Shown: positions 1 through 45,471, numbered from the stretch's first letter. The stretch: DNA of 50,963 nucleotides from a bacterium (GCA_029571125.1 JAKPTH010000283.1:1-50963); one strand, 5' to 3'. Made by a program: numbers and translations. The notes: generated by a model not told the origin, from the sequence alone.

Positions 1-1859
1 TGAGGTTGCTTAATTTCTTCGCGGACAGCGGCGCTTTCTATCAAAGCTCCGGTTTCTCCGGGCGATTTGTCTTCGGCGGCGGCCGGGATTTCACCGGCCT
101 GCCGTACCGCGGAATCCGCCGTTTTATTTTCCGGCAGGTCCTGAACCTGAACCGGCGGTTCTTCTTTTGCGCCTGAGCCTTCCTGCGGCAAGGCTTCTTC
201 AGTCTGCTTCAAAGCCGCCTTGCTTTTAATTTCAGCCCTTATTTCCTCGCCTTTTTTAGGGGAAATTTCAAACTTAAACCAGTCCAGAATATCTTTTTCA
301 AGCCCTACGCTTTCTTTGTCCTTGGTGATGAAATTCACGTAGCATTTTACGAAAAGTTGCTGCAGAGCTGCAAAAGTGAGTTTTTTATTGCACTTAAGCG
401 AGTTGAAAGACCTTTTGAGGTTGCCTTCGTCGTCGCATTCCCAGCGGTACAGCGCCAGGGCGGTTATCACAAGAACGTTATAGTCTTTTATAGGGAACTC
501 CGGAAGAATAAGAGTGTTGGTTTCTACGTTGTAAATTCCGTTTCCGCAGCCCGGAACGAAAAGTATTTCAGGTATCCCTGAGTTTTTGGATATCTTCGAT
601 TTAAAAACCTGCGGATCGGCCTCTAAAAATTTGGCTATCACCTGAAATACCATGTCTGGTATTTTTTTATAGATTTTTTTGGTCATGAATAAAATCGGCT
701 CGATTTCATTTCTTTTAGCCACCTGGTTAAGGATGTTTTTAATATATTCGATTTTCGACACTAAAAAATCTATATTTGATTGCGCGCTCGCGCGTTTTCT
801 GCACAGATCGTACTTTTCTATTTCAGCGAGGCATCTGGCTTTCAAGGAAACGAGCTTCAATAGCTCGCACTCCTTATTTATAAGCTCCGTTTCAAGGCTT
901 ATCAGCTCGGTGTTATATCTTTCGCCGTAAGCTATATTTTTAAGCTCTTCCCTGCGCTCGTTTCTGAGGCTGTTTATCAAAAAATTTTCGATATTCACGA
1001 ATTCGAGAAGCTCTTCTTTCGTCATCGAAAAACCGCTTCCGGTTTTATATTTATAAAAAGAATACGCGTCTATTATCCTTTCGATTTTTTCGCTCGTGGC
1101 CATCATGGCTTTAACCAGAGGCTTTCCGGCGTTCTGTTTGGCTATTTCGTATATAAGCAGCTTGCGCGTTTTAAAGCTGATTTCTTTTTCCATATTCGCC
1201 ATGCTAAGCTTTGAATTAATGCTTTCATACTCGGCGTTAAGCCTTTCCAGAGCGTTGGCGCTCGTGAATTCCTTCAGGCTCGCGCTGAGCCATGAAGTAA
1301 TAGTGTGTATTTTAAAATCGTAATCTTTGATATAACTTTCAGAACCGAGCGCGTCGTTGAGCATGGAGTCGTCGAATCCGCTCGAAGAAAGAACCAGACG
1401 GTCGGACAGATAAGCGAAATCGATAATCTTTTTTTCATCTTCGCTGAAAGTCAGTTCGAAAAGATTATCGCCTTCGTTCCTGAATTTTTTATTTATTATA
1501 TACGTTACTATATCCCAGTACTTTGCGTTAAGAGCGTTTATGGTAAGCGCGTCAAGCGAATTTTCAATGTAGTTATCGATATAATGGTTGGTGAGATTTT
1601 TAAGCGCCACGGCTTCCTGTGAAGCGTCTCCGGCGAATATGGCTTCTATAAGGCGGTTAACTGCTCCGGCCTTCTGGTGAGCGTATTTGGTGGATTTTTT
1701 CGGTTCATGGACAGCCGCCGGTTTCGGACGGGTGAAATATTTAAAATAAACGAATATAGCCAGAATAACGAATATAACGATGGCGAATATCAGTCCGGCG
1801 TTGCTTCTGTTGGCGGCGAAAGCGTCCGACACGCCCTTAAAAAAATCATTTACATGCAT
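1..1859 (-). CDS. Uncharacterised coiled-coil family protein, paralogue A, with N-terminal transmembrane anchor; 3' end runs off the window
   Basis: Not in the ORF track because it has no stop inside the window. Manual translation from ATG 1859: MHVNDFFKGVSDAFAANRSNAGLIFAIVIFVILAIFVYFKYF...NAKYWDIVTYIINKK...FSEDEKKIIDFAYLSD...EADPQVFKSK..GIPEILFVPGCGNGIYN..LIIPEFP..ALALYRWECDD..DWF. These motifs match the genes at 1925-4003 and 6096-7805, and the frame is still open at the window edge. Confidence 0.9.
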   Translation of the reverse strand, partial: MHVNDFFKGVSDAFAANRSNAGLIFAIVIFVILAIFVYFKYFTRPKPAAVHEPKKSTKYAHQKAGAVNRLIEAIFAGDASQEAVALKNLTNHYIDNYIENSLDALTINALNAKYWDIVTYIINKKFRNEGDNLFELTFSEDEKKIIDFAYLSDRLVLSSSGFDDSMLNDALGSESYIKDYDFKIHTITSWLSASLKEFTSANALERLNAEYESINSKLSMANMEKEISFKTRKLLIYEIAKQNAGKPLVKAMMATSEKIERIIDAYSFYKYKTGSGFSMTKEELLEFVNIENFLINSLRNERREELKNIAYGERYNTELISLETELINKECELLKLVSLKARCLAEIEKYDLCRKRASAQSNIDFLVSKIEYIKNILNQVAKRNEIEPILFMTKKIYKKIPDMVFQVIAKFLEADPQVFKSKISKNSGIPEILFVPGCGNGIYNVETNTLILPEFPIKDYNVLVITALALYRWECDDEGNLKRSFNSLKCNKKLTFAALQQLFVKCYVNFITKDKESVGLEKDILDWFKFEISPKKGEEIRAEIKSKAALKQTEEALPQEGSGAKEEPPVQVQDLPENKTADSAVRQAGEIPAAAEDKSPGETGALIESAAVREEIKQP

Positions 1860-1924
1860 ATTCAATCTTCCGTATACAATCGGCGATTTGACACGCCGTC
1901 GTTAATTAAGGCCGGATAATCCGG

Positions 1925-4003
1925 CTAGCTTATCTCTTCTTCCTTCAATAAAGACGACATAAATTTGTAATACTTGCTCTGAAGCGACATAAGGTTAAGA
2001 AAATGCTTAACCTGATTTGCGTCGAGGTTTGAAATGGTTATATTGACTTTCTGATGGTCTTTTGACGGTTCGACCGTCACGTCGTCCAACTTAAAAACCG
2101 ATTTTATGCGTTTTTTTATTATAGCCGAATTTTCCTTGAGAAGAAGCGATATGGTTTCGCTGACTTCTCTCGCCGCAGGGCTTTCTTTGATAAAAGGCTT
2201 TTCGGCCGGAGAGCCGTTGAACTCGCCCGGAAGTTTTACGGATTTTTTATAATCGTTCAAAGCCTGCGAAACTTGAGGCGCGGCTTCTTCGCCGGGGCTT
2301 TCGCCCTGCGTTTCGTCGGGAGCGAATTCGCCGGGAAGCTTTAGCTGCGATTTTTTTCCGGATTTTAATTCGGCGGATATTATTTCGACCTTCAGGCCTT
2401 TTTCTTTCGGAAGCGTTTTCGGCTGCGGAATTTTTTCGGCTGCGGGCGTATCGGAAGGCTGCGCCGCGATTACGTCCTTTTCCGCTCCGGCGTCCGGGCT
2501 TTCAAGGCCAGTTCCGTCCTCTTCAATTTCGAAAGTCTCTTCCGCGCCCGAAAGGCCAGGCGTCTGCTGGACTTCTTTTTGAGAAATATAGCCGATGAAC
2601 CAGCCTCTTGTTTCGTAATCGAAATCGCTGAGAATGGCAGTTTCCTCGCCTGAAAGGCTTTTTGAAATATACAGACAGTAATTTTTTATGAACGACTGCA
2701 TTAATGTAGTCGTGTTCGTAAAATATTTATTTGATTTTAAAAAAGAGTAGGAGTTTTTGAGCTTATTCTCGTCGTCGCATTCCCATCTGTAAATGGCCAT
2801 GGCATTGAGAAAGGAATCCGTGAAATCTTTAGTAGGGAACTGGGGAACTATAAAGGCGTTCAAATGGTAATCGTAGTCGCCCTTTCCCTTGCCCGGAACG
2901 AGGATTATATCAGGATAGCCGTACATTTTGACTTTCTTGTTGTCGAAAAAATCAGGGTCCAGCTCCATAGTGCCTTCTATAAGCTGAAACATCTGCTGCG
3001 GAATGTTTTTGACTATGCCCTGCGTGAGAAATATCACCGGCTCTATCTTATTGCTCCTGGATATGACTTCAATAATATTTTTTATGGCCGATATTCTTTC
3101 CTTTAAAAAATCGTCTTTTTCTTCGTCTAATATTTCCTTTTTTGAATATATGAACTCTTCGATTTTTTGCCTGCTTTTACCTATTAAAGTTACATTGTCG
3201 AAAATTTCATGCTCTTTCTGTATGATCATATCCTCGAGAAAATAAAGGTTGGCGATATAATCCTGGTTGAGGCCCGGCCTGGACTTGCAGAACCGCTTTC
3301 TTTCTTCGCGGGTTTTATTGATCTGATTTTCCAGATTGACGAATTCCACGCGCTCGTCTTTCTTGAGCAGGAGCTCGTTTTGTATGCGCGATCTGAGCGC
3401 GCCGTATTTTTCGAGCGCCTCGTCCACTTTTACGTTGTAGGCAAGAAGTTTGTCTACATCGGCGCGGGCTATATTTTTAGGAGGATGTTCGGAAAAGCTT
3501 TTATCCAGTTTTTTCTTTGACTCTATAACGACGAGTTTTTCATCCCTTAAATTATTTACAGTCGCCACGAGCGCTTCATATTTTTTTTCGTATTCCTTAA
3601 GCTTATTGACGCCCATAAAATCCTGAAGCTGTTCATAAAGCCAGGAAGATATGGAGAAGCATTTTACCGGGCAGCCGCTTTCGGCGGCGGCGGCGACGCT
3701 TTCGGACAGCGATTCGGGGGTTATAGCGTTATTTTCGCCCAGCAGTTCGTCAGAAATATATCCGAAATCAATCGCCAGTTTTTCACTGTCGCTGAAGTGA
3801 AGCTCGCCCGTAGATAAAAGCCGTTTTTTAACTATAAAAAAGACCATATCCCAGTACTGGCTGTTTAAATACCTTATGTGCGCGATATTCGAAGGGTTGG
3901 CGTTAAAGCTGGCTATCGCTGTTTTAATATTATTTTTAAACGCCACGGCTCTTTCCGAGTGATCGGTGGAAAAAATATCGTCGAAAATTTTATTCGTCGC
4001 CAT
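1925..4003 (-). CDS. Uncharacterised coiled-coil family protein, paralogue B (692 aa)
   Basis: Long ORF; start moved to ATG 4003, which follows GGAG. Motifs YWD, DFGYISD, SWLYEQL, DPDFF..YGYPDIILVPGKG, YRWECD, then a Pro/Glu/Ala-rich linker and a small C-terminal domain. Confidence 0.9.
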   Translation of the reverse strand: MATNKIFDDIFSTDHSERAVAFKNNIKTAIASFNANPSNIAHIRYLNSQYWDMVFFIVKKRLLSTGELHFSDSEKLAIDFGYISDELLGENNAITPESLSESVAAAAESGCPVKCFSISSWLYEQLQDFMGVNKLKEYEKKYEALVATVNNLRDEKLVVIESKKKLDKSFSEHPPKNIARADVDKLLAYNVKVDEALEKYGALRSRIQNELLLKKDERVEFVNLENQINKTREERKRFCKSRPGLNQDYIANLYFLEDMIIQKEHEIFDNVTLIGKSRQKIEEFIYSKKEILDEEKDDFLKERISAIKNIIEVISRSNKIEPVIFLTQGIVKNIPQQMFQLIEGTMELDPDFFDNKKVKMYGYPDIILVPGKGKGDYDYHLNAFIVPQFPTKDFTDSFLNAMAIYRWECDDENKLKNSYSFLKSNKYFTNTTTLMQSFIKNYCLYISKSLSGEETAILSDFDYETRGWFIGYISQKEVQQTPGLSGAEETFEIEEDGTGLESPDAGAEKDVIAAQPSDTPAAEKIPQPKTLPKEKGLKVEIISAELKSGKKSQLKLPGEFAPDETQGESPGEEAAPQVSQALNDYKKSVKLPGEFNGSPAEKPFIKESPAAREVSETISLLLKENSAIIKKRIKSVFKLDDVTVEPSKDHQKVNITISNLDANQVKHFLNLMSLQSKYYKFMSSLLKEEEIS

Positions 4004-4790
4004 AGTCAGCTCCATTAACGATTTCATCGAATTTATCGCCCACGCGCTTTTGTATAGAGGCGTTTTTATCCCTGACGCCTTTTTCGAATTTATCGAGCGC
4101 TATAGATATTTCTGAAGTGGCGCTTTCATAGGGCGTTTTCGACATCAATACTTTTTTCTGAATATCGAGGGAAGTTAAAAAAGCTTTAAAAAGACCGTCG
4201 AATTTATCTTTGACGCGGCCGGCCTCCAGGCCGTAATAATCTATATGCTCTTTCTTCAAAACCGAGAGCATCGATTTTAAACTCTGCGCTCTTTGCGGAT
4301 CGGAACTTTTGCTTATGCCGCGCTTGATTTCGGCCAGCTCCGACTTGTGGCGGGAGAAAGCCCTGCCGAGGCACTGCGCATACCGGGCGTTGGCTGAATC
4401 CACGGCGTTTTTTAATTCCTTTTTGAATTTATCTATATCGTCAGCCAGAGCCGAATAAATCTGCATATATTCCACTTCGCCAGTCGCGTCTTTAAAAAAA
4501 TTAATGTTTAAAATATCTTTTTCAAAAGCCCTGTCTATAAGCGCGGCTGAAGCGGCCGGGCGGACGGCTGCGGGCCTCTTTTTTTCTTCAGGCGCCGAAG
4601 CCGCATTTACATTGGGACGAACTGCGCCGCGGGCTTTTTGCGGCGCCGCTTTGACGGCGCCCGGCTTTCGGGCCTGCTGCGCTTCGGCCGGAGCTGGCGA
4701 AGCGCAAAAGAAAGCCAGCGCGAAAGGTAAAAAAGCTGCGGCAGATAACCGCGGCAGTTTTCCTGCTTTATTATCGAAGAAAAATCCCAT
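3990..4790 (-). CDS. Secreted alpha-helical hypothetical protein
   Basis: GAGG RBS; signal-peptide-like N-terminus (AAAFLPFALAFFCASPAPAEA), Ala/Pro/Lys-rich linker, amphipathic helical body; stop overlaps the start of paralogue B. Confidence 0.8.
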   Translation of the reverse strand: MGFFFDNKAGKLPRLSAAAFLPFALAFFCASPAPAEAQQARKPGAVKAAPQKARGAVRPNVNAASAPEEKKRPAAVRPAASAALIDRAFEKDILNINFFKDATGEVEYMQIYSALADDIDKFKKELKNAVDSANARYAQCLGRAFSRHKSELAEIKRGISKSSDPQRAQSLKSMLSVLKKEHIDYYGLEAGRVKDKFDGLFKAFLTSLDIQKKVLMSKTPYESATSEISIALDKFEKGVRDKNASIQKRVGDKFDEIVNGADYGDE

Positions 4791-4836
4791 AAATTCCTCC
4801 GTTTTAAATGAGCGTAAATTAACTAAATCTTAAAAA

Positions 4837-6177
4837 CTATTTAATAAGCTCGCTGAATTTTTGCAATTTCGATTGTATCAGAAGCGTGTTTAATATAAGG
4901 TCGAGTTCTCCGCTGGTAACGTTGATGTTGAGCAAATGTATGTTCACCGCTTCGGCGTTCTTGGGCGACGGCAGAATCGCCAGCTTATCGCCGACGTTTT
5001 CCGATTTTATGATGGCTTTTATCTTGCTGTATATAAGGCTTCTCGCAACGTTAAAGCGTTCCTCAACGGGCACCTGCGAATAGTCGACGGCCGACGGCGC
5101 AGCCGCGCCCGCCTGCGAGGAAGTTTGAGCGGAACCCGGGGAATTTTTAAGCTCCGAATTTTCTTTTTTGAGAGCTTCGATTTCTTCCCGGAGCGCCTTT
5201 AGCTGCTCTTCGAACAAAGCCCGCGTGTCAAAATCGCCGTCGCCGCCTTCCTGAAGCGCCTGCTCGCCTCCCTGAGATTCTATTTTAGAAAAAGCCTCAG
5301 TTTTGAGCTCTTCATAATTTTTAATTTTAAGCAGCTCGGGCCCGTTTAATTTAAGATATCCGTTGACGGCGCTTAAAACTTCAGACGCGGCTTTATAATC
5401 GAGCTCGGCCTTTATGGCTTCGGCGTACTTTTGCTGAAGCTCTCCTTTAACCTTCTCGGCTTCGTTTTTAAGCTTTTCGGCCAGTTCTTTAGCGGTGTTA
5501 GAATCCGCTGCGGCCGTTTTCAGCATTTCGCCGAGCTTCACTTTCGCTTCGGCTATTTTAGCGTCTTCGGCCGCCTTGGCTTCGTTGGCCCGCGCCGCTT
5601 CGTTTTTGGCGAGACTTTTTACGGTTTCGGCTTCGGCCTTGAGCTTTTCAAACTCGGCCTTTTTGCTTTCAAAAGCTATTTTAGCCTCGTTTTCGGCTTT
5701 GGCAGCTTCGGCCGCCTTGACGGTGGCTTCCATCGCTTTTCCAGACGCTTCGGCGGCTTTCACCATAAAGTCGGCCTTCACCGACATATCCGCGCGGGCC
5801 GCCTCCACGGATTTATTGGCCGCCTCTTCCGACAGGCGCGCCGCTTCCGATGCTATCTGGATGGCTGCCTCGTGCGCTTCGTTAAGGGCTTTTTCGGCGT
5901 CCTCCAAGAGTTTTGCGGCTTCGTCCCTTTTCATTTCGGCTTCCGAGGCTTTAGCCATTATTTCGCCGACCCTGTCTTCCGGTTTTTGAGAGCCGAGGCC
6001 GGATTTCTTTTCATGCTTCGCCTCGCCGTGTTTTAAAACCTCGAACTCGACGACCTCGTCTTTTTTGGGCGCCACCTGCCATGTAAACCAGTCTCTTATT
6101 TCTTTGTCGAAAAGCTTATAGCCCTTGAGCTCCTTGGTGATATATATGGTGAAATCCTTAATGAGAGCGCGCTGCAA
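4837..6177 (-). CDS. C-terminal part of paralogue C (Ala/Glu/Lys-rich coiled coil plus conserved C-terminal domain), separated by a duplication-induced frameshift
   Basis: The N-terminus LQRALIKDFTIYITKELKGYKLFDKEIRDWF repeats sequence in 6096-7805; the C-terminus (VNI..N..LN...QSK..KF) resembles that of paralogue B. Confidence 0.7.
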   Translation of the reverse strand: MQRALIKDFTIYITKELKGYKLFDKEIRDWFTWQVAPKKDEVVEFEVLKHGEAKHEKKSGLGSQKPEDRVGEIMAKASEAEMKRDEAAKLLEDAEKALNEAHEAAIQIASEAARLSEEAANKSVEAARADMSVKADFMVKAAEASGKAMEATVKAAEAAKAENEAKIAFESKKAEFEKLKAEAETVKSLAKNEAARANEAKAAEDAKIAEAKVKLGEMLKTAAADSNTAKELAEKLKNEAEKVKGELQQKYAEAIKAELDYKAASEVLSAVNGYLKLNGPELLKIKNYEELKTEAFSKIESQGGEQALQEGGDGDFDTRALFEEQLKALREEIEALKKENSELKNSPGSAQTSSQAGAAAPSAVDYSQVPVEERFNVARSLIYSKIKAIIKSENVGDKLAILPSPKNAEAVNIHLLNINVTSGELDLILNTLLIQSKLQKFSELIK

Positions 6178-6540
6178 ATCGACGAACGATAATTTTTTAT
6201 AAGGCTTGAGGCTGTTATAAGCTTCGCGGCTTCGTCCCTTTTCATTTCGGCCTCGGAGGCCTTCGCCATTATTTCGCCGACCCTGTCTTCCGGTTTTTGA
6301 GAGCCGAGGCCGGATTTTTTTTCGTGTTTCGCCTCGCCGTGTTTTAAGACCTCGAATTCGACGACCTCGTCTTTTTTAGGCGCCACCTGCCAGTTGAACC
6401 AGTCCCTTATTTCCTTGTCGAAAAGTTTATAGCCTTTGAGCTCTTTAGTGATGTATATGGTAAAATCCTTAATGAGAGCGCGCTGTAAATCGACGAACGA
6501 TAATTTTTTATAAGGCTTGAGGCTGTTATAAGCTTCGCGG
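5915..6540. repeat. 311-bp tandem duplication, two diverged copies joined at a GCGG microhomology
   Basis: GCGG occurs at 5915, 6226 and 6537 (period 311). About 22 mismatches counted by eye, all synonymous except one codon (Thr/Asn). Confidence 0.95.
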
Positions 6541-7805
6541 AATTCCTTGTCTTCGTCGCAATCCCAGCGATATAGCACCATGGCCGAAATCACGGATTCC
6601 TTGAAATTGGTGAGCGGAAAAACAGGCACTATGAAAGAATTATAATCGTAACTGTAAATGGCGTTTCCGCAGCCGGGAACGAAAATGACCGACGGATAGC
6701 CGAACCTCTTGAATTTTTTAGTTTTAAAAACGCGGGGATCGGCTTTTAAATATTCACAAAGCGCTTCTATTATCATATCGGGGATGCGCGGCGATATTTT
6801 TTCGCTCAGGCAGGGCGTGGGCTCGATCTTATTTCTTTTAGAAACCAGCTCGAACATATTTTTTATATAAGTTACGCGGTCGTTTATGAAATCTTCTTTT
6901 TTAGAAGCCGGAGTTTCGTTTTTAGCGACTATGAAGCTTTCCAGGTCCGCTTTAGCCTTCGCCAGACCGGAAACCAATCCCAGCAATTCTATTTCGTTTT
7001 CTATAACGTTGTCTTCATATTTGCAAAGATCGTTATTGAGCCCGGCAAACGATTTTATGAGCTCTTTTCTTTCGTTGCGCGAAGTGTTTATCTCGTTTTC
7101 AATGTTTATAAGCTCGAGGCGCTCCTCTTTGGAAAGGGCCATTCCCGAATTGCCCTTAAATTTAAAGAGGGAATATTTATTGGTATTCTGGTTGATCTTT
7201 TCGGAAAGGTTATAAATCCTCAAAAAAAGCTGGGGGTTGTTCAGCTGCCTTCCGATGCTCGCCAAGACCTGTTTTTTAAGCATCACGTTGTCTTCGATGC
7301 TCTTCTTGTATTCCTGGGTTTTATTTACCTTGGCGTCGTATTCCGTGCGCAGCTTCTCTATTTCATATATGCCCATGAATTCTTTGAGCTGCTCGTTGAG
7401 CCAGTCTGTAATGCTGTAAAATTTTATTTCGATATCGTTGATGCGTGTGGATGAATCGAAAACATCGTCTATGCCTTCAAGAGAGAATTTTTCACTCGAT
7501 TTCGCCACCATATCGGAAACGTATCCGTAATTTACGGCCAGAAGCTCGTCGTTCGAAAAAGTCATCGGCGAGGCGCCTTTAGTGGCCGCCACCTTTTTTT
7601 TCAAAACGTACGTGATTAAATTCCAGTATGCGTAATTAAGCGAGCGCTTCGCGAAAGGATCGCGAGTATTAGCCAGATGCTTGGATATATTGGAAATCAT
7701 ATCGTTTTTGATTTCCGCGCACTTATTGTCAGAACCTTCGTTTTCCAACAGCTTGTCAAGGATTATGTCGTTAATTTCACTGCCCATATCACTCACGTCT
7801 TTCAT
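6096..7805 (-). CDS. N-terminal part of paralogue C of the coiled-coil family; removing one repeat copy gives one 885-aa ORF (4837-7805)
   Basis: Motifs YWN, NYGYVSD, DWLNEQL, DPRVF..FGYPSVIFVPGCG, YRWDCD. It goes out of frame at the duplication junction near 6226; 2969-311 = 2658 nt = 886 codons. Confidence 0.85.
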   Translation of the reverse strand: MKDVSDMGSEINDIILDKLLENEGSDNKCAEIKNDMISNISKHLANTRDPFAKRSLNYAYWNLITYVLKKKVAATKGASPMTFSNDELLAVNYGYVSDMVAKSSEKFSLEGIDDVFDSSTRINDIEIKFYSITDWLNEQLKEFMGIYEIEKLRTEYDAKVNKTQEYKKSIEDNVMLKKQVLASIGRQLNNPQLFLRIYNLSEKINQNTNKYSLFKFKGNSGMALSKEERLELINIENEINTSRNERKELIKSFAGLNNDLCKYEDNVIENEIELLGLVSGLAKAKADLESFIVAKNETPASKKEDFINDRVTYIKNMFELVSKRNKIEPTPCLSEKISPRIPDMIIEALCEYLKADPRVFKTKKFKRFGYPSVIFVPGCGNAIYSYDYNSFIVPVFPLTNFKESVISAMVLYRWDCDEDKEFREAYNSLKPYKKLSFVDLQRALIKDFTIYITKELKGYKLFDKEIRDWFNWQVAPKKDEVVEFEVLKHGEAKHEKKSGLGSQKPEDRVGEIMAKASEAEMKRDEAAKLITASSLIKNYRSSICSALSLRISPYISPRSSRAISFSTKK

Positions 7806-7898
7806 TATATTTCTTTAAAGCTGGTTTATAAACGCCTTATATATTTATGGCTTTCCGATGCGATTTCTCGATGCTACTGAAACCTATGAATAATTTAT

Positions 7899-9242
7899 CT
7901 ACCTCTTCGATTCCGAAGCGAAAGCTTCGAATTTTTTGGCCATTTCGTCCAGCGTTTCGTCAAAGCCTTTCTGCCCGCTGAGAAGCTTTTCGAGCGCTTT
8001 ATTGAGTTCGTCCAGATAGCGGGGCTCGGGTATGTTATAAGCATGAAGCGCGGCCAGTTTCATCTGTTCGAATAACACCTTTCTTATAGAAGCCGCGCTT
8101 TTGCCCGGATCGGCCTGAAGATGATCCATGACGGATTTTCTGGTCGGTATTATATAATTATCGCGGGCGAATCTGGCCTGCGCGTCTTTGGAATTGATGA
8201 AATTTATGAAGTCGTAGGCCTTCTCAGGGTGTCGGCACGCCGAAGATATGCACAGATACTGTCCGCCGACGGGAGAAGCCGAATCGTGCTTGCGGGGAAT
8301 TACTGCTACGCCGAGGTTTTCAGGATTTTTAAAAGCCTGGCCCTTCATTATCTTTTTTATATTCCACGGGCCGTCGATTATCATCGAAACCCTGCCGTCC
8401 ATAAATTCCATCAAAGTGAAGTCATGGCCGAACTTAGGGTCTATTTTCGAAGGAACTACGTTATATTTGCTTTTTAAATCGTATATGAACTTTAACGCGG
8501 ATTTCGTCTTTTCGGATTTGATAAGCGGAGCGCCCGATTCGTCGCAGAGGTTTCCGCCGTAGCTGAATATGAACGGAAGCAGATAATAAGATTCAAAATG
8601 ATACGAAAAACCGTATCTGGATATTTTATACTGGTTAAAAAGCGTTGTGTCGGCCGAATTTCCATCTTCATCGACGGTCAGTTTGCGAGAGTACGATAAA
8701 AATTCCTCCATGGTTTTCGGAGCGTCGTTGATTTTAGCGTCTTTAAAATGCGACTTGTTGTAGAAAAGGACCAGGCAGTCGGTGACCTGAGGTATGCCGT
8801 AAAGCTCTTTGGCGTTCAAAACGCTGAACTTATACAAATAAGGGAAGTAATCGACGTAATCCGCCGTAGCTATGTAAGGATCGAGCGCCATAAACATTTT
8901 CTGCCTGGCGTAAGGAAGGATAAGCCTTATTTCGACCCTCATTATATCCGGCAGATTTTTCTGCCTGAATTTTTCTTCGAGATAGTTTTTGGCGTCGTAA
9001 AAAGACACGTTTTCAATCTGAATTTTGACGTCGGGATTTTTGGCGCCGTATTCTTTTATGAGCTCGAAAAGCGTTTCGTTTTCCTCGTCGTTCATGGTGT
9101 TCATGAAGCTGAGCACCGTTTCTTCGGCCGTTCCCGCTGACTTTTTATCGGCGGCGGCCGCCGGCGCGGCGTATGAAAAGAGTTCAAAACAAGCGATTAT
9201 ATTAACAATTACAATCAAAATGAGCGCGTTTTTTCTACTCAT
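7899..9242 (-). CDS. Extracellular solute-binding protein, sugar ABC-transporter type (SBP_bac_1/8-like)
   Basis: Signal peptide; motifs LYGIPQVTDCLVLFYNK, FMDGRVSMIIDGPW, GGQYLCIS, AYDFINFI; GAGG before ATG 9242. Confidence 0.9.
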   Translation of the reverse strand: MSRKNALILIVIVNIIACFELFSYAAPAAAADKKSAGTAEETVLSFMNTMNDEENETLFELIKEYGAKNPDVKIQIENVSFYDAKNYLEEKFRQKNLPDIMRVEIRLILPYARQKMFMALDPYIATADYVDYFPYLYKFSVLNAKELYGIPQVTDCLVLFYNKSHFKDAKINDAPKTMEEFLSYSRKLTVDEDGNSADTTLFNQYKISRYGFSYHFESYYLLPFIFSYGGNLCDESGAPLIKSEKTKSALKFIYDLKSKYNVVPSKIDPKFGHDFTLMEFMDGRVSMIIDGPWNIKKIMKGQAFKNPENLGVAVIPRKHDSASPVGGQYLCISSACRHPEKAYDFINFINSKDAQARFARDNYIIPTRKSVMDHLQADPGKSAASIRKVLFEQMKLAALHAYNIPEPRYLDELNKALEKLLSGQKGFDETLDEMAKKFEAFASESKR

Positions 9243-9301
9243 GGATTGACCTCTCAATTATATCGAAAATTTTAAGCCATGATTATTATGATAACGGAAT
9301 G

Positions 9302-9330
9302 ATTATAATTGTTTTTATTATAATTGTCAA
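9302..9330 (-). promoter_or_regulatory. Consensus sigma70 promoter for the solute-binding protein gene and probably the paralogue cluster
   Basis: Minus-strand TTGACA (9330-9325), 17 bp, TATAAT (9307-9302). Confidence 0.75.
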
Positions 9331-9354
9331 CCTTTAGTTTGACTTTGGCCGACT

Positions 9355-12300
9355 TTATTTTTTGGAATCGGATACCCCCGAAGAGCTTAAAAGTTTGAGC
9401 GCCGATATTATCGTCTGGACAAGGTTATCGCCTTTCATATCCGCCTTCACCAGATACAGGATAGTTATTTCCTCCTCGTGGGCGAAACTGACGCTCGAAC
9501 CGAATTTTTTGCGCAGCGTTTCGACTGAGGCCGGCTCTATCTGCCCGGCGTTTTGAAACTTGATGATTATGTGCTTCTTTTCCTCCTTGACCGAAATCGC
9601 TTTAAGCGCGCGGCCGAGGATTTTTATTTTAACTATCTGGAAAAGGTTGTACACCTGTTCGGGATATTTTCCGAACCGGTCGATCAGCTCGTCGTTCAAC
9701 TCGCTGAGTTCTTCAAAACCCGCCGCCGCGACCATTCTTTTATACACGTCTATTTTTTGATAAGTGGAAGTGATATAATTGGTCGGAATATAAGCGTTGG
9801 TATTTATCTCTATTTCGCAGTCGGATTCGACCTTCTGATCTATCGATTCGCCTTTTATCTTTTTGATTTCCTCTTCTAAGAGCCTGCAGTAAAGCTCGAA
9901 GCCTATGGTGCAGATATGGCCGTGCTGCTCATGGCCGAGAAGATTTCCCGCGCCCCTTATTTCAAGGTCGCGCATGGCGATTTTATAACCCGAACCGAGT
10001 TCCGAAAATTCCTTCATAGCCTGGAGGCGCTTTTTAGCTATATGGCTCAATATAGATTCATGCGGGAAGAAAAAATACGCGTACGCCTGATTTTTAGCCC
10101 TTCCCACGCGGCCCCTCAGCTGATAAAGCTGGGAAAGTCCGAAGGTGTCCGCGCGCTCTATAATTATCGTGTTTACGTTAGATATGTCGAGGCCGTTTTC
10201 TATAATGGTCGTCGAAACGAGCACGTCGAACTCGCGGTCGTAGAAATCCACCATTATCTTTTCTAGCTGCTTTTCGTCCATCTGGCCGTGCGCGAACCTC
10301 ACGCGGGCGCCCGGCACAAGGGCCGAAATCTTGCTCACTACGCTGCTTATGGTATCGATGCGGTTATGCACGTAATACACCTGGCCGCGCCTCATCAGTT
10401 CTCTGGTTATAGCCTCGCGCACCACGTCTTCGGAATATCTTAAAACGAAAGTTTTTACTGGAAGGCGTTCCGCCGGCGGCGTGTTTATAGTTGAAATATC
10501 GCGCGAACCGACGAGCGACATGTAAAGCGTGCGGGGAATCGGCGTAGCCGTTAATGTAAGCACGTCCACGTGGTTTTTAAGTTCCTTAAGCCTTTCCTTG
10601 TGTTTCACGCCGAAACGCTGTTCTTCGTCAACTATAAGAAGCCCGAGGTCCTTAAAACCCATATCTTTCTGTATAATGCGGTGCGTGCCAACGACCACGT
10701 CCACCTTGCCCTCTTTCAGTTTTTCGACGGTCTCCTTCTGCTCGGCCTTGCTTCTGAAACGCGACAGAAGCTCGACAGTGACGGGATACGACGCGAACCG
10801 CGAAGTGAGCGTGTTATAATGCTGCATGGCAAGTATGGTTGTCGGCGCAAGAAAGGCGACCTGTTTTCCGTCCATGCACGCTTTAAAAGCGGCCCTGATG
10901 GCGACTTCCGTTTTGCCGAAGCCCACGTCGCCGCATATAAGGCGGTCCATTGGTTTTTCGCTCTCCATGTCGCATTTGACCTCGATGATGGAATTCTGCT
11001 GGTCCGAAGTTTCCTTATACGGGAAAGACTCTTCGAACTGACGCATCAGATCGTTGTCGAGATTGAACTTATGCCCTTGGGCTATGGAGCGGCGCGCGTA
11101 AAGCGTAACCAGATAAGCGGCCAGTTTTTCGATGGACTTACGGGCGGTGGCCTTCTGGCGCTTCCATGAAGACTCGTCGAGCTTTCCTATTTTAGGCTCG
11201 GCTCCGTCGAGGGCTATATATTTATGGAGCATCGAAAGCGCGTCCACGGGGACGTATAGCTTATCGGTGTCGGCGTATTCCAGCAGCAGATAGTCGGCCT
11301 CGCGTCCTCCGGCCGAAAGGAGCGTGATGCCCCGGTAAACGCCTATTCCGTAATTTACGTGCACCACGTAATCGCCGTCGGAAAGTTCGAGATGCGAAGA
11401 AATTTTGCGGTAGCGGTTTTTCGCCTTCGCTTTGACGTCGAGCTCCACCTGTTTGTCGTAGATCGGCTGGTGCTCGCCGTAGGCTTCGTAACTGGAAAAA
11501 AACGCTATGTTTTCGTCGTTATATATAAACCCTTCGTGAAGGTAGCCTTCGTTGACATAAACGGTTTTGCGCGCGGGCGGCGACGAAAGGAAATCGTCGT
11601 TTACCACGACGGCGAGCTTCATCGACGATAAAACCTCCACCATACGACCTATCTGGCCGGCGGTAGGCAGCATCATCACGACGGTGTTCGCCCTTTCTAT
11701 AAGTTCGCCGACCTTACTCATGAACTGGTTGAATTTCCCCTGAAACCTCGGAAGCGCCGAGACGTTGAAATCGAATATCAAATGCCCCGGCTCTTTAAGG
11801 TCTATCGCGTCATAGGCGCTCATATCGATTTTAACGGTCGCATTGTTATGTTCGATGTCTTTAATTATTATATCGGGATGTTTGTAATAATGATCGGGCG
11901 CGAGCGAATAAATATCTTCGGCTTTATTTTCTTCGTAAAGCTTTTCGACTTTCTTCAAAAATTCCGCGCCTTCGTTCACCGCGTCTTCTTTTGAATAATA
12001 AAATACGCAGTATTTATGGACATACTTATTAAGGTAGTCCACCAGGGTCGGCATCGAATAATCGTACATGAAAGGCGCGTATCGCTCTATATTGGCCACC
12101 CTGACGCCGTCGGCGATCTGGCCGGCCTCGTGCGACTGGGGAACGCGCGATATCTTATTCATGTTGGCGTACATGGATTCGATCTCTTTTTTACCGAAAA
12201 TATATTCGCTGGCCGGAAGCACGTATACTTCGCTTATCTGCTCTATAGCGCGCTGGTCTTCTATATTGAAGGTTTTGATCGAATCCACCGTGTCGCCGAA

Positions 12301-14578: not shown

Positions 14579-15847
14579 TTACCAGAAAACGTAAAGAAGA
14601 AAACTTAAAAATCCCGCTATTACGAATAACATACTATACCAGAAATTAGCTATTTTTGCAAGTACGCTTTTCGCCCCCGCGGTTTTTTTATTGTTCCACA
14701 TCTCGCCGGCTTCTTTTCTGCCGGAAGCTTTAGTATTAAAGTTTTTCAAGCCTGTTTCGGATACCTGATTTTCAGCCGCGTTAATTTCGCCATCCGCCGC
14801 CGCGCTTTTCTTTCCGAATAAAATGGCGTAAGCGTCGCCGTCGTTTTCGGCCTGAAACCTGGTTGCGGCGCCCGGAGCGTTATTGGCAGAATCGGACGCG
14901 GCCGGCTTTTTTTCCGGGCCTCCGAAGGAAGGTATTTTAATATCTATGAAATTTTCGCCGGCCTTATTTTTAGCGCCGTCGGCTTTGCGCGGCGCGTGAG
15001 GCGTTTCTTCTGCCTGTTTCATGAATTTAGAAGGATCGACCTGCATGGAAGACAGGACGTCGGTTTTGTTTATCTGGTCCGAAACGAATTTTACGAGAGC
15101 GTCGAGAAGCTCGTCTATGGACTGATACCTCGAGGAAATATCGCTGGTGACGCATTTGAATATTATATTTTTAATAGCTTCGAGCTGCTGCGGCCCTATA
15201 TTTTTAACGTTGTCCGAATCGAGCCTGAAATCCTTCACCACTCTCATATTTCTAACGCTCAGCCCGTCCGCCTCGAACAGGGGCTTATGGGTAAGAAGCT
15301 CGTAAAAAAGGCATCCCGTAAAGAAAATATCGGAGCCCACGGAGGAAATTTTATTTTCAAAATCCTTGTTGGATATGACGTCGCGCGGTATGTGGAACTG
15401 AAGTATCTTTATCTTGCCGCTAGCCTGATAAATTATATCGGAATATGTAAGCGAACGGTATTTCACGTTTTCGCGCAGCGCCTGCCCGAAAGCTCTGGTG
15501 AGCTGGGTTATGATATTGATTATCTGGGCCAGAGAAAGCTTTTCGCGTTCCTTTAAAATGGCGTGCAGGCTCTTTCCTTCGACATGCTCGGAGGCCACGA
15601 AGAAAACGTCCTGGTAAAAATCTATGTCGTATATTTTCAAAAACAGCGGCGAATCGAGCGCGGCCATAGTCTGGAACTCCTGAGTATAGCGCTGGACGAA
15701 ATCGGGATTTTTAAGGCGCCTCTGCTTTAAAGTCCTTATATTGATGTTCACTACCGGCTCTTTCACTGTCTGCGCGAGAAAAAGCATCACTTTTTCGTCT
15801 TCGTCTATCTTTTCGAGCAGTTTATATTTATCTTTCAGCAGTTTCAT
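14579..15847 (-). CDS. Hanks-type Ser/Thr kinase-fold protein, predicted catalytically inactive (pseudokinase), with C-terminal membrane anchor
   Basis: Aligns by eye with the PrkC/PknB kinase domain (KYKLLEKI, FVQRYTQE, IYDI, EHVEGKSL, GKIKI, SDIFFTGCLFYELLT, RYQSIDEL), but the Gly-loop, VAIK lysine, HRD..N and DFG are all replaced. It ends in a single hydrophobic helix. Confidence 0.85.
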   Translation of the reverse strand: MKLLKDKYKLLEKIDEDEKVMLFLAQTVKEPVVNINIRTLKQRRLKNPDFVQRYTQEFQTMAALDSPLFLKIYDIDFYQDVFFVASEHVEGKSLHAILKEREKLSLAQIINIITQLTRAFGQALRENVKYRSLTYSDIIYQASGKIKILQFHIPRDVISNKDFENKISSVGSDIFFTGCLFYELLTHKPLFEADGLSVRNMRVVKDFRLDSDNVKNIGPQQLEAIKNIIFKCVTSDISSRYQSIDELLDALVKFVSDQINKTDVLSSMQVDPSKFMKQAEETPHAPRKADGAKNKAGENFIDIKIPSFGGPEKKPAASDSANNAPGAATRFQAENDGDAYAILFGKKSAAADGEINAAENQVSETGLKNFNTKASGRKEAGEMWNNKKTAGAKSVLAKIANFWYSMLFVIAGFLSFLLYVFW

Positions 15848-17052
15848 CTTTTAACACCTACCTCTATATCTTTAAAGAAAACGTTGTCCAGATAAACGAG
15901 CACTTTCATCGCTCCGTAACCGTTGACGCTCAGGTCTATCTCTTCGCCGGGGTAATGAGGGTTCTTATAAATCTCGCGCGGCCCCATGTCGTCAAGCAGA
16001 ACCATCTTGACTTCACGGCTTTTCTGGCCGGGAGGGACTATGAATTTGATGATTTCGACTTTTTTTACCGCGTCGCCGCTTCCGGCTTCGACCAGGGGTT
16101 TAGCCGCGGCGGCCGGGGCTTCGGCGGTCTTTTCGCCGCGGGTTTCGATCAATGGAAGCGGAGCTTCCTTGCTGCCGGCGTCTATTTTAATCACGTTGCT
16201 TTCGCTGGATTCCATTTTAACGCCGTCCGTTTTTATTATTACCGCGTCCTTGTTTTCTTCGGGCTTCGCGGCGTCGGAATTTTCGCATACTATGAAATTG
16301 ACCGGAGTTTTATCGGCGACGCCGCTTCCTGCGGCGGGTTCCTGGGCCAGAACGATTCCCGAAGCAGTGCCTTCTTTTTTCTCGTATCCTATCTTGCCGA
16401 GGTCGAGGTTAATTTTGCTCAAAACGATCTTTACGGCCTCGATGCGCCTGCCTATGAAATTAGGCATTTTAACGGTCGAATTGGCCTTGCCCTGCGATAC
16501 CAGAAGGTCTATCTGGGCGCCTTTCGGCGCGGGCTTGCCGCCTTCGGGCGTCTGTGAAATTACCGTATCCACCGCAACGCTTTCCGAAAATATATACGAT
16601 TTTTTGCCTATCAAAAAGCCTTCTTTTTGTATAATGAACGCCACGTCGCGCAGGTCTTTTCCCGTGATATCCGGGCAGTCTATGGTTTTAGCGCCGAGCG
16701 AAAGTATTACTTCCATCACGCGGTTGGCTTTTACTATGGTGTCGGGAGGCGGATCCTGGGTTATGATGCAGCCTTCGGGAATGTTGTTGTCGTGCTTTTT
16801 ATCCTTTATGTCCAGCTGCAGCTTGCACTGCTTGCAAAGCTCGAACGCGTCCTCGATGCGCACCGGCATTCCGTCCTGCGAAACCAGGTTCGGCACCTTG
16901 GTCTCCTCCTTGTTGAAAAAGGAGTTCATCATTTTAATCGAATACATTTTAGCGAACTGGAAAAGTATCACGAAAAATATTATGAATATCAAAAATTTTA
17001 ATAACGCGATAAGAATATTTCCTTTTACCGCTCTGGATTGTGTGAATCGCAT
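15844..17052 (-). CDS. Membrane-anchored PASTA-domain protein (three PASTA repeats plus C-terminal beta domain)
   Basis: N-terminal TM; repeats VPNL..IITQDPPP..V, CPDITG..VISQTPEGG..IDLLVS, MPNFIG..VLAQEPAAG..VNFIV; ATGA overlap with the pseudokinase gene. Confidence 0.92.
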   Translation of the reverse strand: MRFTQSRAVKGNILIALLKFLIFIIFFVILFQFAKMYSIKMMNSFFNKEETKVPNLVSQDGMPVRIEDAFELCKQCKLQLDIKDKKHDNNIPEGCIITQDPPPDTIVKANRVMEVILSLGAKTIDCPDITGKDLRDVAFIIQKEGFLIGKKSYIFSESVAVDTVISQTPEGGKPAPKGAQIDLLVSQGKANSTVKMPNFIGRRIEAVKIVLSKINLDLGKIGYEKKEGTASGIVLAQEPAAGSGVADKTPVNFIVCENSDAAKPEENKDAVIIKTDGVKMESSESNVIKIDAGSKEAPLPLIETRGEKTAEAPAAAAKPLVEAGSGDAVKKVEIIKFIVPPGQKSREVKMVLLDDMGPREIYKNPHYPGEEIDLSVNGYGAMKVLVYLDNVFFKDIEVGVKR

Positions 17053-27333: not shown

Positions 27334-28080
27334 TTAAAGCCGCCGGGCGGCCGCCAGGTCTTTAAAATCATTGATTTCTTTATAAAGCGAACCGCATTTT
27401 AGCTTCAAATTATCCTGATCGAACCGGCCGTCGTAAGTCAGGGACCCGTTTTCCATATAAATAAGCCTTTCGGAAACAGCCAGGGCGAAGTGGATATCCT
27501 GAGTCACTATTATTTTCGACTTCTTATAACCCGCAAGTGTTTCGATTAATTTGAGCTTGCTTACGTAATCGAGATTGGACGAAGGCTCGTCCAGCATTAA
27601 AACTTCGGGTTCTATAACCATCACAGAAGCAAGGGCCAGCCGTTTTTTCTGGCCGAAGCTCAGATGCTGCGGCTCTAATTTCATGAACTTTTCAAGGCCG
27701 AGCGAGACTGAATAAAAGTTTAATTTTTCCTCGGCCCCGGCGCGAGAGACGCCTAAATTTTTAAGGGCGAATAAAATTTCCTCTTCGACGGTATCGCAGA
27801 ACAGCTGATTTTCAGGGTTTTGAAAAACCAGATTTACCTTTTTATAAAGCGTACTATCGTCGAATTCTTTAAGAGGCAGGCCGGAAATTTTTATATCGCC
27901 GGAATAATTCTTTAAAACTCCTGCAATCGCAAGTAAAAGTGTGGACTTTCCCGCGCCGTTAGGCCCCATTATAGAAACGGTTTCGCCTTCGTTTATTTCA
28001 AAGGAAACGCCGTCGATTATAAGTGCGCCGCCTGCGTCATAAGACAATTTTAAATTTTCGATTTCGATTATCTTCTTCAT
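27334..28080 (-). CDS. nikO: ECF-type Ni/Co transporter ATPase (NikO/CbiO)
   Basis: GPNGAGKST, VFQNPENQLF, LSFGQKKR, LDEP; in an operon with M, N and Q subunits. Confidence 0.9.
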   Translation of the reverse strand: MKKIIEIENLKLSYDAGGALIIDGVSFEINEGETVSIMGPNGAGKSTLLLAIAGVLKNYSGDIKISGLPLKEFDDSTLYKKVNLVFQNPENQLFCDTVEEEILFALKNLGVSRAGAEEKLNFYSVSLGLEKFMKLEPQHLSFGQKKRLALASVMVIEPEVLMLDEPSSNLDYVSKLKLIETLAGYKKSKIIVTQDIHFALAVSERLIYMENGSLTYDGRFDQDNLKLKCGSLYKEINDFKDLAAARRL

Positions 28081-28118
28081 ATCTTTAAATCAATTCCATT
28101 TAGACGAACGGTTTCAAG

Positions 28119-28940
28119 CTATATGTAAAAGCAAAATGCCGTAAAGGCAAAAAAAATGGCCGTAAATTTATAATCGCCGGAATTTAAAGCGGGAGCCGGA
28201 TAAAATTCTTCTTTAAATGCCGCGTTAAAACCGCCGCCCCTGAGTTTCATGGCCAGATTGTTGTTTTCGGCGCGGTCGAAGCTTTTTATAAAAAGAGCCG
28301 AAAACATCATCGCAAAAGTCTTAATGCTCATCATGTTTTTGGGTTTAAAAAATCTCAGCCTGGAAGAAAATTCCATAATCAAAAGCTCGTTTATAAAATC
28401 CTGAAGGTAACGCCAGGTATTTTTAAAAAGCCTCACGAATACGGCCGGAAATTTAAAAACGTAAAGGGCGCCCGAAAGATCGTTAAACGAAGTGGCCGCG
28501 CTGAAAACGATCACCGAATTAAGGCCGATAAATATCTTGAGCATAAGAGCGAGTGCGAATATCTGCTCGTAGGTCTTTATTTTTAGAAAATCGATATATA
28601 TGAAACCCAGCGCGGAATCTTTCAGAACGTCATCCGGCCTGAGGCCGGAATCCATAAAAAGGCTTCCGCCCGAAATCATGCCGTAAAAAAAAACCGCGGC
28701 CGCATACAATACGAAAGGCGCCGCAGGAAGCGAGCGGCCGATAAAAGCCTTGAACGGTATTTTAGAAACGGCCGCCAGAGCGAGCGTAAAAAAAAATATA
28801 AGCAGCAGGCGTTCGGGCTTTTGGGGGGCCGCGGCGGAAGCCATTACCGGAAAAGCTATAATAAGGCCAAGTTTAAGCGCCGGATTTAACTTTTGTATCA
28901 CGCCGTCGGCGCCGTGATATTCGTCGATCTTAAAATGCAT
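28119..28940 (-). CDS. nikQ: ECF-type Ni/Co transporter T component (NikQ/CbiQ)
   Basis: Multi-TM; LNPALKL near the N-terminus, KSFDRAE...AMKLRG. Confidence 0.88.
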   Translation of the reverse strand: MHFKIDEYHGADGVIQKLNPALKLGLIIAFPVMASAAAPQKPERLLLIFFFTLALAAVSKIPFKAFIGRSLPAAPFVLYAAAVFFYGMISGGSLFMDSGLRPDDVLKDSALGFIYIDFLKIKTYEQIFALALMLKIFIGLNSVIVFSAATSFNDLSGALYVFKFPAVFVRLFKNTWRYLQDFINELLIMEFSSRLRFFKPKNMMSIKTFAMMFSALFIKSFDRAENNNLAMKLRGGGFNAAFKEEFYPAPALNSGDYKFTAIFFAFTAFCFYI

Positions 28941-28991
28941 GGCTATTCAGCCGCCGGGCGGCACGCAGACGTCAAAAAGATTGCAGCCCTC

Positions 28992-29435
28992 TTATTTTTC
29001 ACTGAAATGCTCCTCGTAAAGCAGTTTGAGCTCAAGAGCGCGTTTTTTGACGACCTCCAGACGCGCGCCCGCAGCAATAACACGGTACATGGTGCCTTCC
29101 TTTTTAGAATAAGCGGCCGCTATCAGCGCAAATTCAGCGTCGCGAAAAGCGATCCATGCGAGCTGCGCTTTTTTGAGCGCCGCCCTGGTCTCTTTATCAA
29201 AATTTTCGCTCAGAAGCCTGTAATATTTATTCAACTCCGCGTCCCATTTTTTTTCGCCTTCCTCCGCTGCCGCTATCATTCCCGCGGTGGAAGGATCTTT
29301 GTCCATCATGGCGTCCACCAGCTTATCTATTTCATGCTTCGCAGTTTCGGCGTTAACCTCAACAGCGGACATGCAGGTTAAAACTATTAAGGCGACAGCC
29401 GTGAAAGAAGCCCGAATAAAAAATGATATTTTCAT
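28992..29435 (-). CDS. Secreted DUF1311/LprI-like protein
   Basis: Signal peptide; STAGM....E..KWDAELNKYY..L...LKKAQLAWIAFRDAE; own AAGGAG RBS. Confidence 0.85.
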   Translation of the reverse strand: MKISFFIRASFTAVALIVLTCMSAVEVNAETAKHEIDKLVDAMMDKDPSTAGMIAAAEEGEKKWDAELNKYYRLLSENFDKETRAALKKAQLAWIAFRDAEFALIAAAYSKKEGTMYRVIAAGARLEVVKKRALELKLLYEEHFSEK

Positions 29436-35413: not shown

Positions 35414-35426
35414 AAAAATCCCTTTT

Positions 35427-35996: not shown

Positions 35997-36020
35997 CCTT
36001 TCGCTACTTTAATATGCCTT

Positions 36021-44064: not shown

Positions 44065-44073
44065 TGAATTAAG

Positions 44074-45468: not shown

Positions 45469-45471
45469 ATT

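Follow-up and report, generated by a model that had tools for sequence, protein, structure and literature searches.

Gene content of the cluster and its three paralogues

The stretch of DNA analysed here (the window; GCA_029571125.1, JAKPTH010000283.1; 50,963 nucleotides) stems from an uncultured sludge bacterium and represents the entire contig C630 of a metagenome-assembled genome (MAG; 725 contigs, 94% complete). Its first 9,330 positions carry a cluster of five genes, all on the minus strand, which encode a solute-binding protein (SBP), three paralogous proteins termed A, B and C, and a secreted helical protein, arranged in the order SBP, C, secreted protein, B and A (Table 1). The paralogues belong to a fairly large, unnamed protein family that lacks the HExxH motif and whose C-terminal half is predicted to adopt a zincin-like fold. 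As claimed in an original prediction made from the DNA letters alone, the five co-oriented genes follow one consensus promoter, which is matched at every position, with no obvious terminator after the first gene: no minus-strand terminator-like site was found in the intergenic gaps of the cluster, and every such match falls inside a coding region. The gaps amount to 93 nucleotides (nt) between SBP and C, 46 nt between C and the secreted protein and 59 nt between B and A, and the gene of the secreted protein overlaps that of B. A second promoter-like site (7804–7832, minus strand, 10 of 12 matches) reaches the start codon of C and, as placed, could serve only a downstream start. Since the window is a whole contig, paralogue A is cut by the assembly and not by biology. 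Paralogue B probably starts at its second Met, because the protein on record comprises 696 amino acids (aa) compared to the 700 aa of the open reading frame (ORF).

Table 1. Positions of the cluster features within the window.
Feature	Coordinates	Strand	Remarks
Sigma-70-type promoter-like site	9302..9330	-	TTGACA-17-TATAAT, 12/12 matches; 45 nt 5' of the SBP start codon
SBP gene	7899..9257	-	family-1 carbohydrate type, 452 aa; Pfam
Paralogue C	4837..7805	-	885 aa after removal of the duplicated 311 nt; core, linker and tail
Paralogue C as two window ORFs	6096-7805 and 4837-6177	-	
Extra copy of 311-nt segment in paralogue C	6176..6486		strain-chimeric assembly artefact
Secreted/lipoprotein-like helical protein	3990..4790	-	266 aa
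Paralogue B	1925..4027	-	700-aa ORF; core, Pro/Glu-rich disordered linker, tail domain; no transmembrane segment
Zincin-like (M34/ATLF-like) domain of B	2579..3019	-	without HExxH; domain model
Equivalent of this domain in A	within about 225-797		
Equivalent of this domain in C	within about 6345-6920		
Paralogue A	3..1865	-	3' end lost at contig end, leaving 621 of about 699 aa
C-terminal tail domain of B	1928..2182	-	~70-85 aa; helix-strand-strand-helix pattern; alignments
C-terminal tail domain of C	4840-5094		alignments
C-terminal tail domain of A			beyond contig end

A, B and C are mutually 33–35% identical and are the only copies in their own genome. All motifs listed in the original prediction are common to the three proteins and follow the shared order described there, as borne out by an alignment of 18 cores from six genomes. 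This alignment contains 33 invariant columns, among them L53, N54 and W58 in the YW helix, E81, Y89 and S91 in FS..E...DFxYxSD, W128 and L129 in WL.E.L..F, P329 in IEP, D356 and F360 in DP..F, P377, G378, G380, Y384 and P394 in VPGxGxG..Y...P, R413 and D417 in YRWxxD, and W475 and F476 in WF. Each paralogue consists of a core of ~480 aa, a low-complexity or Ala/Glu/Lys-rich linker and a tail of ~70 aa with a helix-strand-strand-helix pattern; the same tail domain occurs in two remote members of the family (P0148 and P0061). Paralogue C alone possesses an extra Ala/Glu/Lys-rich helical linker of ~250 aa, which is followed by the small tail domain. A rise of the G+C content at window positions 5000–6500 (0.51–0.53 vs about 0.42–0.46 around) overlies this linker and therefore reflects composition, not foreign DNA. 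The predicted complex of the three tail domains, with the C tail as partner, reached a median score of 0.52 vs 0.35 for a control in which chain 1 was replaced, a result that counts neither way.

The A-type N-terminus begins with a ~20-aa peptide (MxVNDFFxxVSxxFxxNRSN), which is conserved across three genera and is followed by one transmembrane (TM) segment, a Lys-rich flank and the core. By inspection, an N-terminal hydrophobic segment is present only in A among the three paralogues, and just two of 81 full-length family representatives, both A-type, carry one, corroborating the claim that the TM anchor is restricted to A. With the Lys-rich flank located behind the TM segment, the established positive-inside rule suggests that the bulk of A is cytoplasmic, as judged by eye; B and C have no signal sequence and should therefore be cytoplasmic as well.

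No Pfam or NCBIfam family scored above threshold for the paralogues (hmmscan of six window proteins, E ≤ 0.1). Similarly, hmmscan of all 32 members of an alignment of the C-terminal domain unveiled no peptidase family at E ≤ 10, NCBIfam likewise giving none, and a sequence profile search of the PDB with the core returned no match (best E 0.061). The defence models of PADLOC-DB 2.0 yielded 0 families at E ≤ 0.01 for the intact A, B, C, secreted protein and SBP of the related genome G083 and for the family member P0044; only the region of the fused member P0035 that binds cyclic nucleotide monophosphates (cNMP; residues 236–345) matches Pycsar-type models.

The division of paralogue C into two ORFs results from a 311-nt tandem repeat (5909–6208 vs 6220–6519, 92% identical), which puts the two halves out of frame. 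Differences between the two copies fall on codon position 3 in 24 of 25 cases, a pattern that marks the copies as alleles of a functional gene rather than as a gene and its decaying duplicate. In G083 a single copy of the segment is found, agreeing with the upstream window copy at 308/311 and with the downstream copy at 288/311 positions. Furthermore, Logan contigs of the DNA runs X1, X3 and X5, which belong to three studies, join position 6175 to 6487 and thereby skip exactly 311 nt. The resulting single-copy form is an uninterrupted frame of 885 codons and matches the intact 883-aa orthologue of G083 at 849/883 residues. Because the contigs of three independent metagenome runs lack the duplication, the interruption of C is an artefact of strain-chimeric assembly of the MAG; a genuine in-situ frameshifting duplication is ruled out by the codon-position pattern, the copy identity in G083 and the skipping contigs. 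The case is a cautionary one of strain-chimeric MAG assembly error, exposed by public contigs.

The SBP matches Pfam SBP_bac_1 (3.5e-33) and SBP_bac_8 (9.5e-33) over residues 59–384, its orthologues in the genomes G079 and G081 match the same SBP_bac families, and weak NCBIfam matches of the GanS/MalE type lie far below the cut-off. Its hydrophobic N-terminal segment ends in ..NIIAC, a lipobox read by eye, so that the SBP is probably a lipoprotein. Permease or ATPase genes were found neither in the cluster nor next to the SBP gene, and no partner was seen among the 36 Pfam-scanned ORFs of positions 12966–50883, the remainder of the genome being outside this search; this region holds a CbiMQO-type cobalt/ECF transporter at 27334–30736. 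The scanned ORFs around the orthologous clusters of G083, G079 and G081 contained no permease or ATPase gene either. The secreted protein consists of a hydrophobic N-terminus ending in C29, which is invariant in four orthologues, a Lys/Pro/Ala-rich stretch and a helical domain of ~170 aa, and matches no Pfam or NCBIfam family. As the invariant Cys ends the hydrophobic stretch, this protein is probably a lipoprotein, too. It was detected in 7 of the 8 other genomes of the Wallbacteria-like family f1, to which the source genome belongs, always inside the cluster, and was not found in G085 (91% complete); outside the f1 clusters only two weak matches with E about 1e-4 were obtained. The one strong promoter and the short gaps or overlaps make it probable that the genes of the SBP, the helical lipoprotein and the paralogues share a transcript.

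Fold of the core and the absent HExxH motif

The core was modelled with AlphaFold2 from the 18-sequence alignment (pLDDT 84.8, pTM 0.76). According to the model, short helices up to residue 137 are followed by five long helices (139–324) forming one bundle and by an alpha/beta domain (341–481). The long coiled coil of the original prediction is thereby replaced by an intramolecular five-helix bundle. Neither the whole core nor the C-terminal domain found a counterpart in the PDB by Foldseek at E ≤ 0.001. In the VIA searches the whole core returned generic helical-bundle matches only, and the bundle itself (core residues 138–297) matched the McpS ligand-binding domain (Z 10.4), JetABC (Z 9.3) and PhoU (Z 8.2–8.7); these scores stay below the helical-bundle background stated for the tool (about 13), and the matches come from many unrelated families.

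The C-terminal domain was folded alone from a 32-sequence alignment (pLDDT 88.0) and compared by VIA with 48,161 chains in an unbiased search. In 37 of the best 50 rows the chain is a named peptidase, lethal factor or a metal-dependent hydrolase, and three rows are clearly unrelated. The highest score belongs to PPEP-2 (Z 7.9, rmsd 4.1, 131 residues aligned), ahead of the lethal factor N-domain at Z 7.5 and of Certhrax and lethal factor, both at Z 7.4. Re-alignment by VIA of the 218 candidates from Foldseek gave Z 8.9 for lethal factor domain IV (141 aligned, chain 591–773) and Z 8.1–8.4 for PPEP-1/Zmp1 over chain 48–220, the matches to lethal factor and PPEP-1 covering residues 41–188 of the domain model. 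In terms of ESM features, Peptidase_Mx1, ATLF and Peptidase_M90 are the nearest of the named clusters (0.88–0.89), which serves as a lead only; the nearest clusters overall in the ESM Atlas are unnamed proteins of ~553–574 aa, most commonly from Spirochaetota, which are candidate carriers of the family. Since, on the scale calibrated for VIA, such Z values are only middling, we assign a zincin-like fold to the C-terminal domain as a predicted likeness at fold level rather than as proven homology.

None of A, B and C contains an HExxH motif. Furthermore, no invariant or nearly invariant His occurs in the 18-sequence core, the 32-sequence domain or the 14-sequence TPR-type alignment, and no conserved Cys was observed either. 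Behind the sheet lies a helix that terminates in YRW(E/D)xD in the Wallbacteria-like lineage (..AIYRWECDD) and in EYRLDVDED in the TPR type. Invariant throughout the family are D(P), PGxG, Y, P, D, (KD)Y and (W)F. With regard to a third zinc ligand (Glu, His or Asp) on a later helix, the domain alignment shows the Tyr of KDY as nearly invariant and one Asp as invariant. The statement of the original prediction that no named domain can be recognised hence holds for sequence searches against Pfam, NCBIfam and the PDB, but not for the structure of the C-terminal half. Likewise, the family maps onto a known enzyme class, the zincin metallopeptidase superfamily, at the structural level, but without the catalytic HExxH.

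Family range and gene neighbourhood in relatives

A search with B alone as query matched 9 of the phylum's 87 genomes, the own genome included: all 8 other f1 genomes and 0/78 of the others, the named close matches being Candidatus Wallbacteria MAGs. The domain profile increases this number to 14/87 (f1 8/8, f4 1/2, f5 4/4, remaining families 0/72). A profile search of 1.84 billion representatives gave 250 clusters (50% identity) at E ≤ 1e-3, 178 at ≤ 1e-10 and 92 at ≤ 1e-30. Carriers are Fibrobacterota, Chitinivibrionales, Chitinispirillales (with the cultured Chitinispirillum alkaliphilum, CHISP_1504), Planctomycetota, Candidatus Raymondbacteria and Wallbacteria-like bacteria, and named members are annotated as 'hypothetical protein' or 'TPR repeat protein'. 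As judged by titles and abstract openings, the papers found on Wallbacteria do not deal with the family and those found on zincin-like or pseudoprotease proteins are general ones, a negative restricted to these searches.

In the maximum-likelihood tree (midpoint root, several long outgroup branches) the Wallbacteria-type sequences form a clade with 99/99 support, inside which A, B and C constitute separate clades, each with two or three genera; A and B are sisters (97/93). From this topology A, B and C are ancient paralogues, whose triplication is older than the split of the three genera; G081 holds A-type and C-type copies only. Across the 81 full-length representatives the extension after the core has a median of 119 aa. 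Of 24 remote members scanned, seven carry a C-terminal TPR and two (P0035 and P0046, about 1010 aa, metagenomic) two cNMP-binding domains ahead of the core. The cNMP region of these two proteins resembles Pycsar-type effectors in PADLOC.

The cluster is present in 8/8 other f1 genomes, and three genera of this family share the order SBP-(C)-secreted-(B)-A. In G083 the genes read mfd-SBP-C-secreted-B-A-DegT-hybrid kinase-pyrG, and in G079 SBP-C-secreted-B-A-DegT-pyrG with gaps of -1 to 21 nt and PmbA/TldD genes divergent upstream. G081, the most divergent genus, shows SBP-secreted-A-DegT-pyrG, with gaps of 12 nt (SBP-secreted) and 21 nt (secreted-A) and LysE and FMN reductase on the SBP-side flank. 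The hybrid histidine kinase gene following the cluster in G083 is absent from the clusters of G079 and G081. The C-type copy of G081 (L023, G081:C31:170000-188000, ORF 7169-9724, minus strand) is located elsewhere, between HydABC-type [FeFe]-hydrogenase genes on one side and, on the other, a hydrogenase-like PAS sensor (593 aa), a family-less 616-aa protein and a SpoIIE/PP2C phosphatase; these neighbours may hint at a regulatory setting. PmbA/TldD metallopeptidase genes adjoin the G079 cluster (L022 13704-16483, plus strand) and are also found two genes downstream of the single-copy homologue in five Raymondbacteria and Fibrobacterota loci (L063-L070), which may be a coincidence.

Outside f1, relatives were located with the TPR-type alignment, the two patterns of which bias the search toward Fibrobacterota, and 40 of 43 loci were analysed, as L034, L047 and L067 are partial or very short and were dropped. 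In these 40 loci from Fibrobacterota, Raymondbacteria and Planctomycetota the gene is single-copy. Its commonest neighbours are an unnamed 248-aa protein (15 loci), miaA (14), der (11), a MerR-type gene (9) and gpsA (8), and another subgroup has class-I tRNA synthetase and PmbA/TldD neighbours, in 5 loci each. The 248-aa protein encoded upstream in Fibrobacterota was considered as a relative of the Wallbacteria secreted protein and rejected (BLASTP E 1.8). No SBP gene was observed in the 40 loci or in five loci of the same phylum, where the neighbours are unrelated housekeeping genes. The f5 homologue (~490 aa) is devoid of a TPR tail; in 3/4 loci a 285-aa TPR protein has its own gene further downstream, which in two loci follows directly (for G007, two ORFs were scanned). 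The f5 loci L078, L079 and L081 (G008, G006 and G009) display the split form of the fused Fibrobacterota TPR architecture, with speE, speD and two ~160-aa unknown genes upstream.

Evidently, the triplication and the linkage to SBP and lipoprotein are confined to one Wallbacteria-like family. Outside of it the family is single-copy, soluble, fused to or located beside TPR repeats, and placed among housekeeping genes with no SBP. The conservation of gene order and SBP linkage suggested in the original prediction accordingly extends over three genera of f1 and fails beyond them, where homologues occur singly with unrelated neighbours.

In the window itself, the region 5' of the cluster promoter encodes mfd, a WecG/TagA glycosyltransferase, rpe, a Ser/Thr kinase, a PASTA-domain gene, rlmN, rsmB, fmt, def, priA, coaBC and gmk. 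The PASTA-repeat gene (402 aa) lies directly 5' of the separate kinase gene (422 aa) with a 4-nt overlap (14579-17052, minus strand), an arrangement opposite to that of PknB-type proteins, in which the kinase part usually precedes the PASTA repeats in one chain. ORFs of 166-364 aa without a Pfam family (E ≤ 1e-5) were found at 31504-32508, 34319-36875, 43987-44952, 45088-45969, 47140-47640 and 50200-50883; some of them overlap other ORFs and may not be genes. A protein with Sel1 and ankyrin repeats is encoded at 38860-40062 (plus strand) and a second Sel1-repeat protein nearby at 46002-46601 (plus strand).

Interpretation and relation to known systems

We favour, tentatively and at somewhat less than an even chance, a cytoplasmic family of pseudo-peptidase adaptors, one copy of which is membrane-tethered and whose link to SBP and lipoprotein is suggested by gene order. 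In the model the core combines an N-terminal helical domain, the intramolecular five-helix bundle and a C-terminal zincin-like domain that has presumably lost its HExxH zinc site, and the degenerate substrate cleft would hold a peptide or protein ligand. Partners would be recruited by the C-terminal module, that is, by TPR repeats, fused or encoded next door, in most phyla and by the small helix-strand-strand-helix tail in the Wallbacteria-like lineage. In the Wallbacteria-like family the gene has been triplicated, and copy A would have gained an N-out signal anchor that places it at the inner membrane face, B and C staying soluble. The occasional cNMP-binding fusions may point to regulated behaviour. 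A functional link of the paralogues to SBP and lipoprotein is suggested by adjacency in one bacterial family, the shared promoter and the tight spacing; in all other lineages that were analysed it breaks down.

Several points weigh against this reading. Z values of 7.9–8.9 are middling and, by the calibration of the tool, no proof of homology, and the putative equivalence of the YRWxxD helix with the former HExxH helix follows from the order of secondary structures and linear mapping only. The acidic cluster (YR.D.DED), the invariant Tyr and the invariant Asp could form a non-canonical active site, so that catalysis may have been retained. The fold searches took the whole core and the C-terminal domain, and the topology of A relies on visual inspection. 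Common descent may account for a synteny that spans three genera of a single family and extends into the housekeeping genes DegT and pyrG. With respect to transcription, 24 sequencing runs were listed, two of them RNA, each with 0.05 of the words; the RNA run X20 provided a single 270-nt contig at 5824–6093, and such a contig in one RNA library is not enough to demonstrate transcription.

The same conserved residues lead to the alternative of an active hydrolase with a non-canonical site of invariant Tyr, Arg and Asp (Y..YRxDxDED, KDY), which might process peptides or an envelope precursor and of which A, B and C would be isozymes or subunits. A zincin-like fold is typical of hydrolases, the conserved polar residues cluster on and after the presumed active-site helix, the cNMP-binding fusion in 2/24 scanned members resembles ligand-regulated enzymes, and the neighbouring WecG/TagA and DegT sugar aminotransferase genes are envelope-sugar genes. 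However, the domain holds no conserved His or Cys anywhere, every Wallbacteria copy has Ile or Leu in place of the first Glu of 'EYRLD' (TPR type), and no peptidase family is matched by sequence; we consider this alternative unlikely. Improbable to a similar degree is an inherited gene order in a housekeeping region that does not represent a system, A, B and C acting alone and SBP and lipoprotein having unrelated roles. The housekeeping run upstream in the window (gmk, coaBC, priA, def, fmt, rsmB, rlmN, kinase, rpe, mfd), the continuation of the conserved block into DegT and pyrG, the position of single-copy relatives among miaA, der, gpsA and class-I tRNA synthetase, and the close kinship of all nine cluster-bearing genomes agree with it. 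Yet SBP, lipoprotein and paralogue stay together while the SBP-side flank varies (mfd in G083, PmbA/TldD in G079, LysE and FMN reductase in G081), the lipoprotein is known only from the cluster, and gene overlaps and gaps of 4–21 nt suggest translational coupling.

According to the original prediction, A, B and C constitute a membrane-tethered, hetero-oligomeric signalling complex that receives extracytoplasmic input from SBP and secreted protein via A. This model is in line with the adjacency of SBP, lipoprotein and A-type copy even in G081, with the conservation of the extracytoplasmic peptide of A across three genera, with an SBP lacking a transporter partner nearby and with the hybrid histidine kinase gene after the cluster in G083. 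The proposed input is not supported by the probable topology of A: as the bulk of A is probably cytoplasmic, SBP and secreted protein could touch nothing but its N-terminal peptide, since only about 20 residues would lie outside the membrane. Furthermore, family members of other phyla have no SBP, lipoprotein or TM anchor, the kinase is missing from the clusters of G079 and G081, and no output domain can be recognised; the model is regarded as decidedly unlikely. A variant that unites it with the adaptor role, in which A, B and C would assemble via their tail domains into an A-tethered hetero-oligomeric pseudo-zincin complex and the outside peptide of A would dock the orphan SBP and/or the lipoprotein, is regarded as very unlikely. 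If true, it would represent a transmembrane signalling or scaffolding device built from dead proteases, without a kinase, cyclase or other known output domain.

The fold class as such is already known; the family is unnamed, its missing zinc site is clear, and the proposed five-gene system is lineage-specific. The analysis defines a sizeable family without a Pfam or NCBIfam model or a solved relative detectable by sequence, and offers a structural hypothesis for it, namely a zincin fold minus the zinc site coupled to TPR or tail interaction modules. If the adaptor reading is true, a large bacterial group joins the pseudo-peptidases, and cultured Fibrobacterota, which carry a single copy, provide a tractable entry point.

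Among known systems, the M34 zincins (catalytic domain of lethal factor; PPEP-1/Zmp1, PPEP-2 and PPEP-3; Pfam ATLF) are the best structural matches of the C-terminal domain, the match to PPEP-1 spanning nearly the whole enzyme (chain 48–220). In contrast to these enzymes, the family lacks HExxH and any conserved His, shows no sequence match and only 8–14% identity in the superpositions, and is predicted to be cytoplasmic with a helical N-terminal half of 340 residues. The regulatory zincins IrrE/PprI, ImmA and CapP share with the family the cytoplasmic location and the fusion to sensor or interaction modules. Their matches are weak (PprI with Z 6.4–6.8 over about 92 residues; CapP as top Foldseek row, E 0.14), partial and scored below those of M34, and in contrast to the family they keep HExxH and cleave repressors. 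Some orphan family-1 SBPs serve as co-sensors of membrane receptors, for example as sugar-binding proteins docking on chemoreceptors or sensor kinases. The SBP of the cluster resembles them in its SBP_bac_1 signature and in having no permease or ATPase gene nearby, whereas the cluster encodes no receptor with a periplasmic domain, A exposing only about 20 residues.

Zincin-like binding domains, i.e. the domain of lethal factor that binds PA and those of edema factor and Certhrax, form a further group of structural matches (6psn_L Z 7.5, 3kwv_C Z 7.4, 4fxq Z 7.4, 1xfv Z 5.8). None of these domains is known to keep a working HExxH. They are parts of secreted toxins of Bacillota and differ from the family in context, and no sequence similarity to them was found. 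The lethal factor N-domain type nevertheless provides a precedent for a zincin fold that is retained as a protein-binding module, and the use of pseudopeptidases as scaffolds is raised as a general point in PMC11266112.

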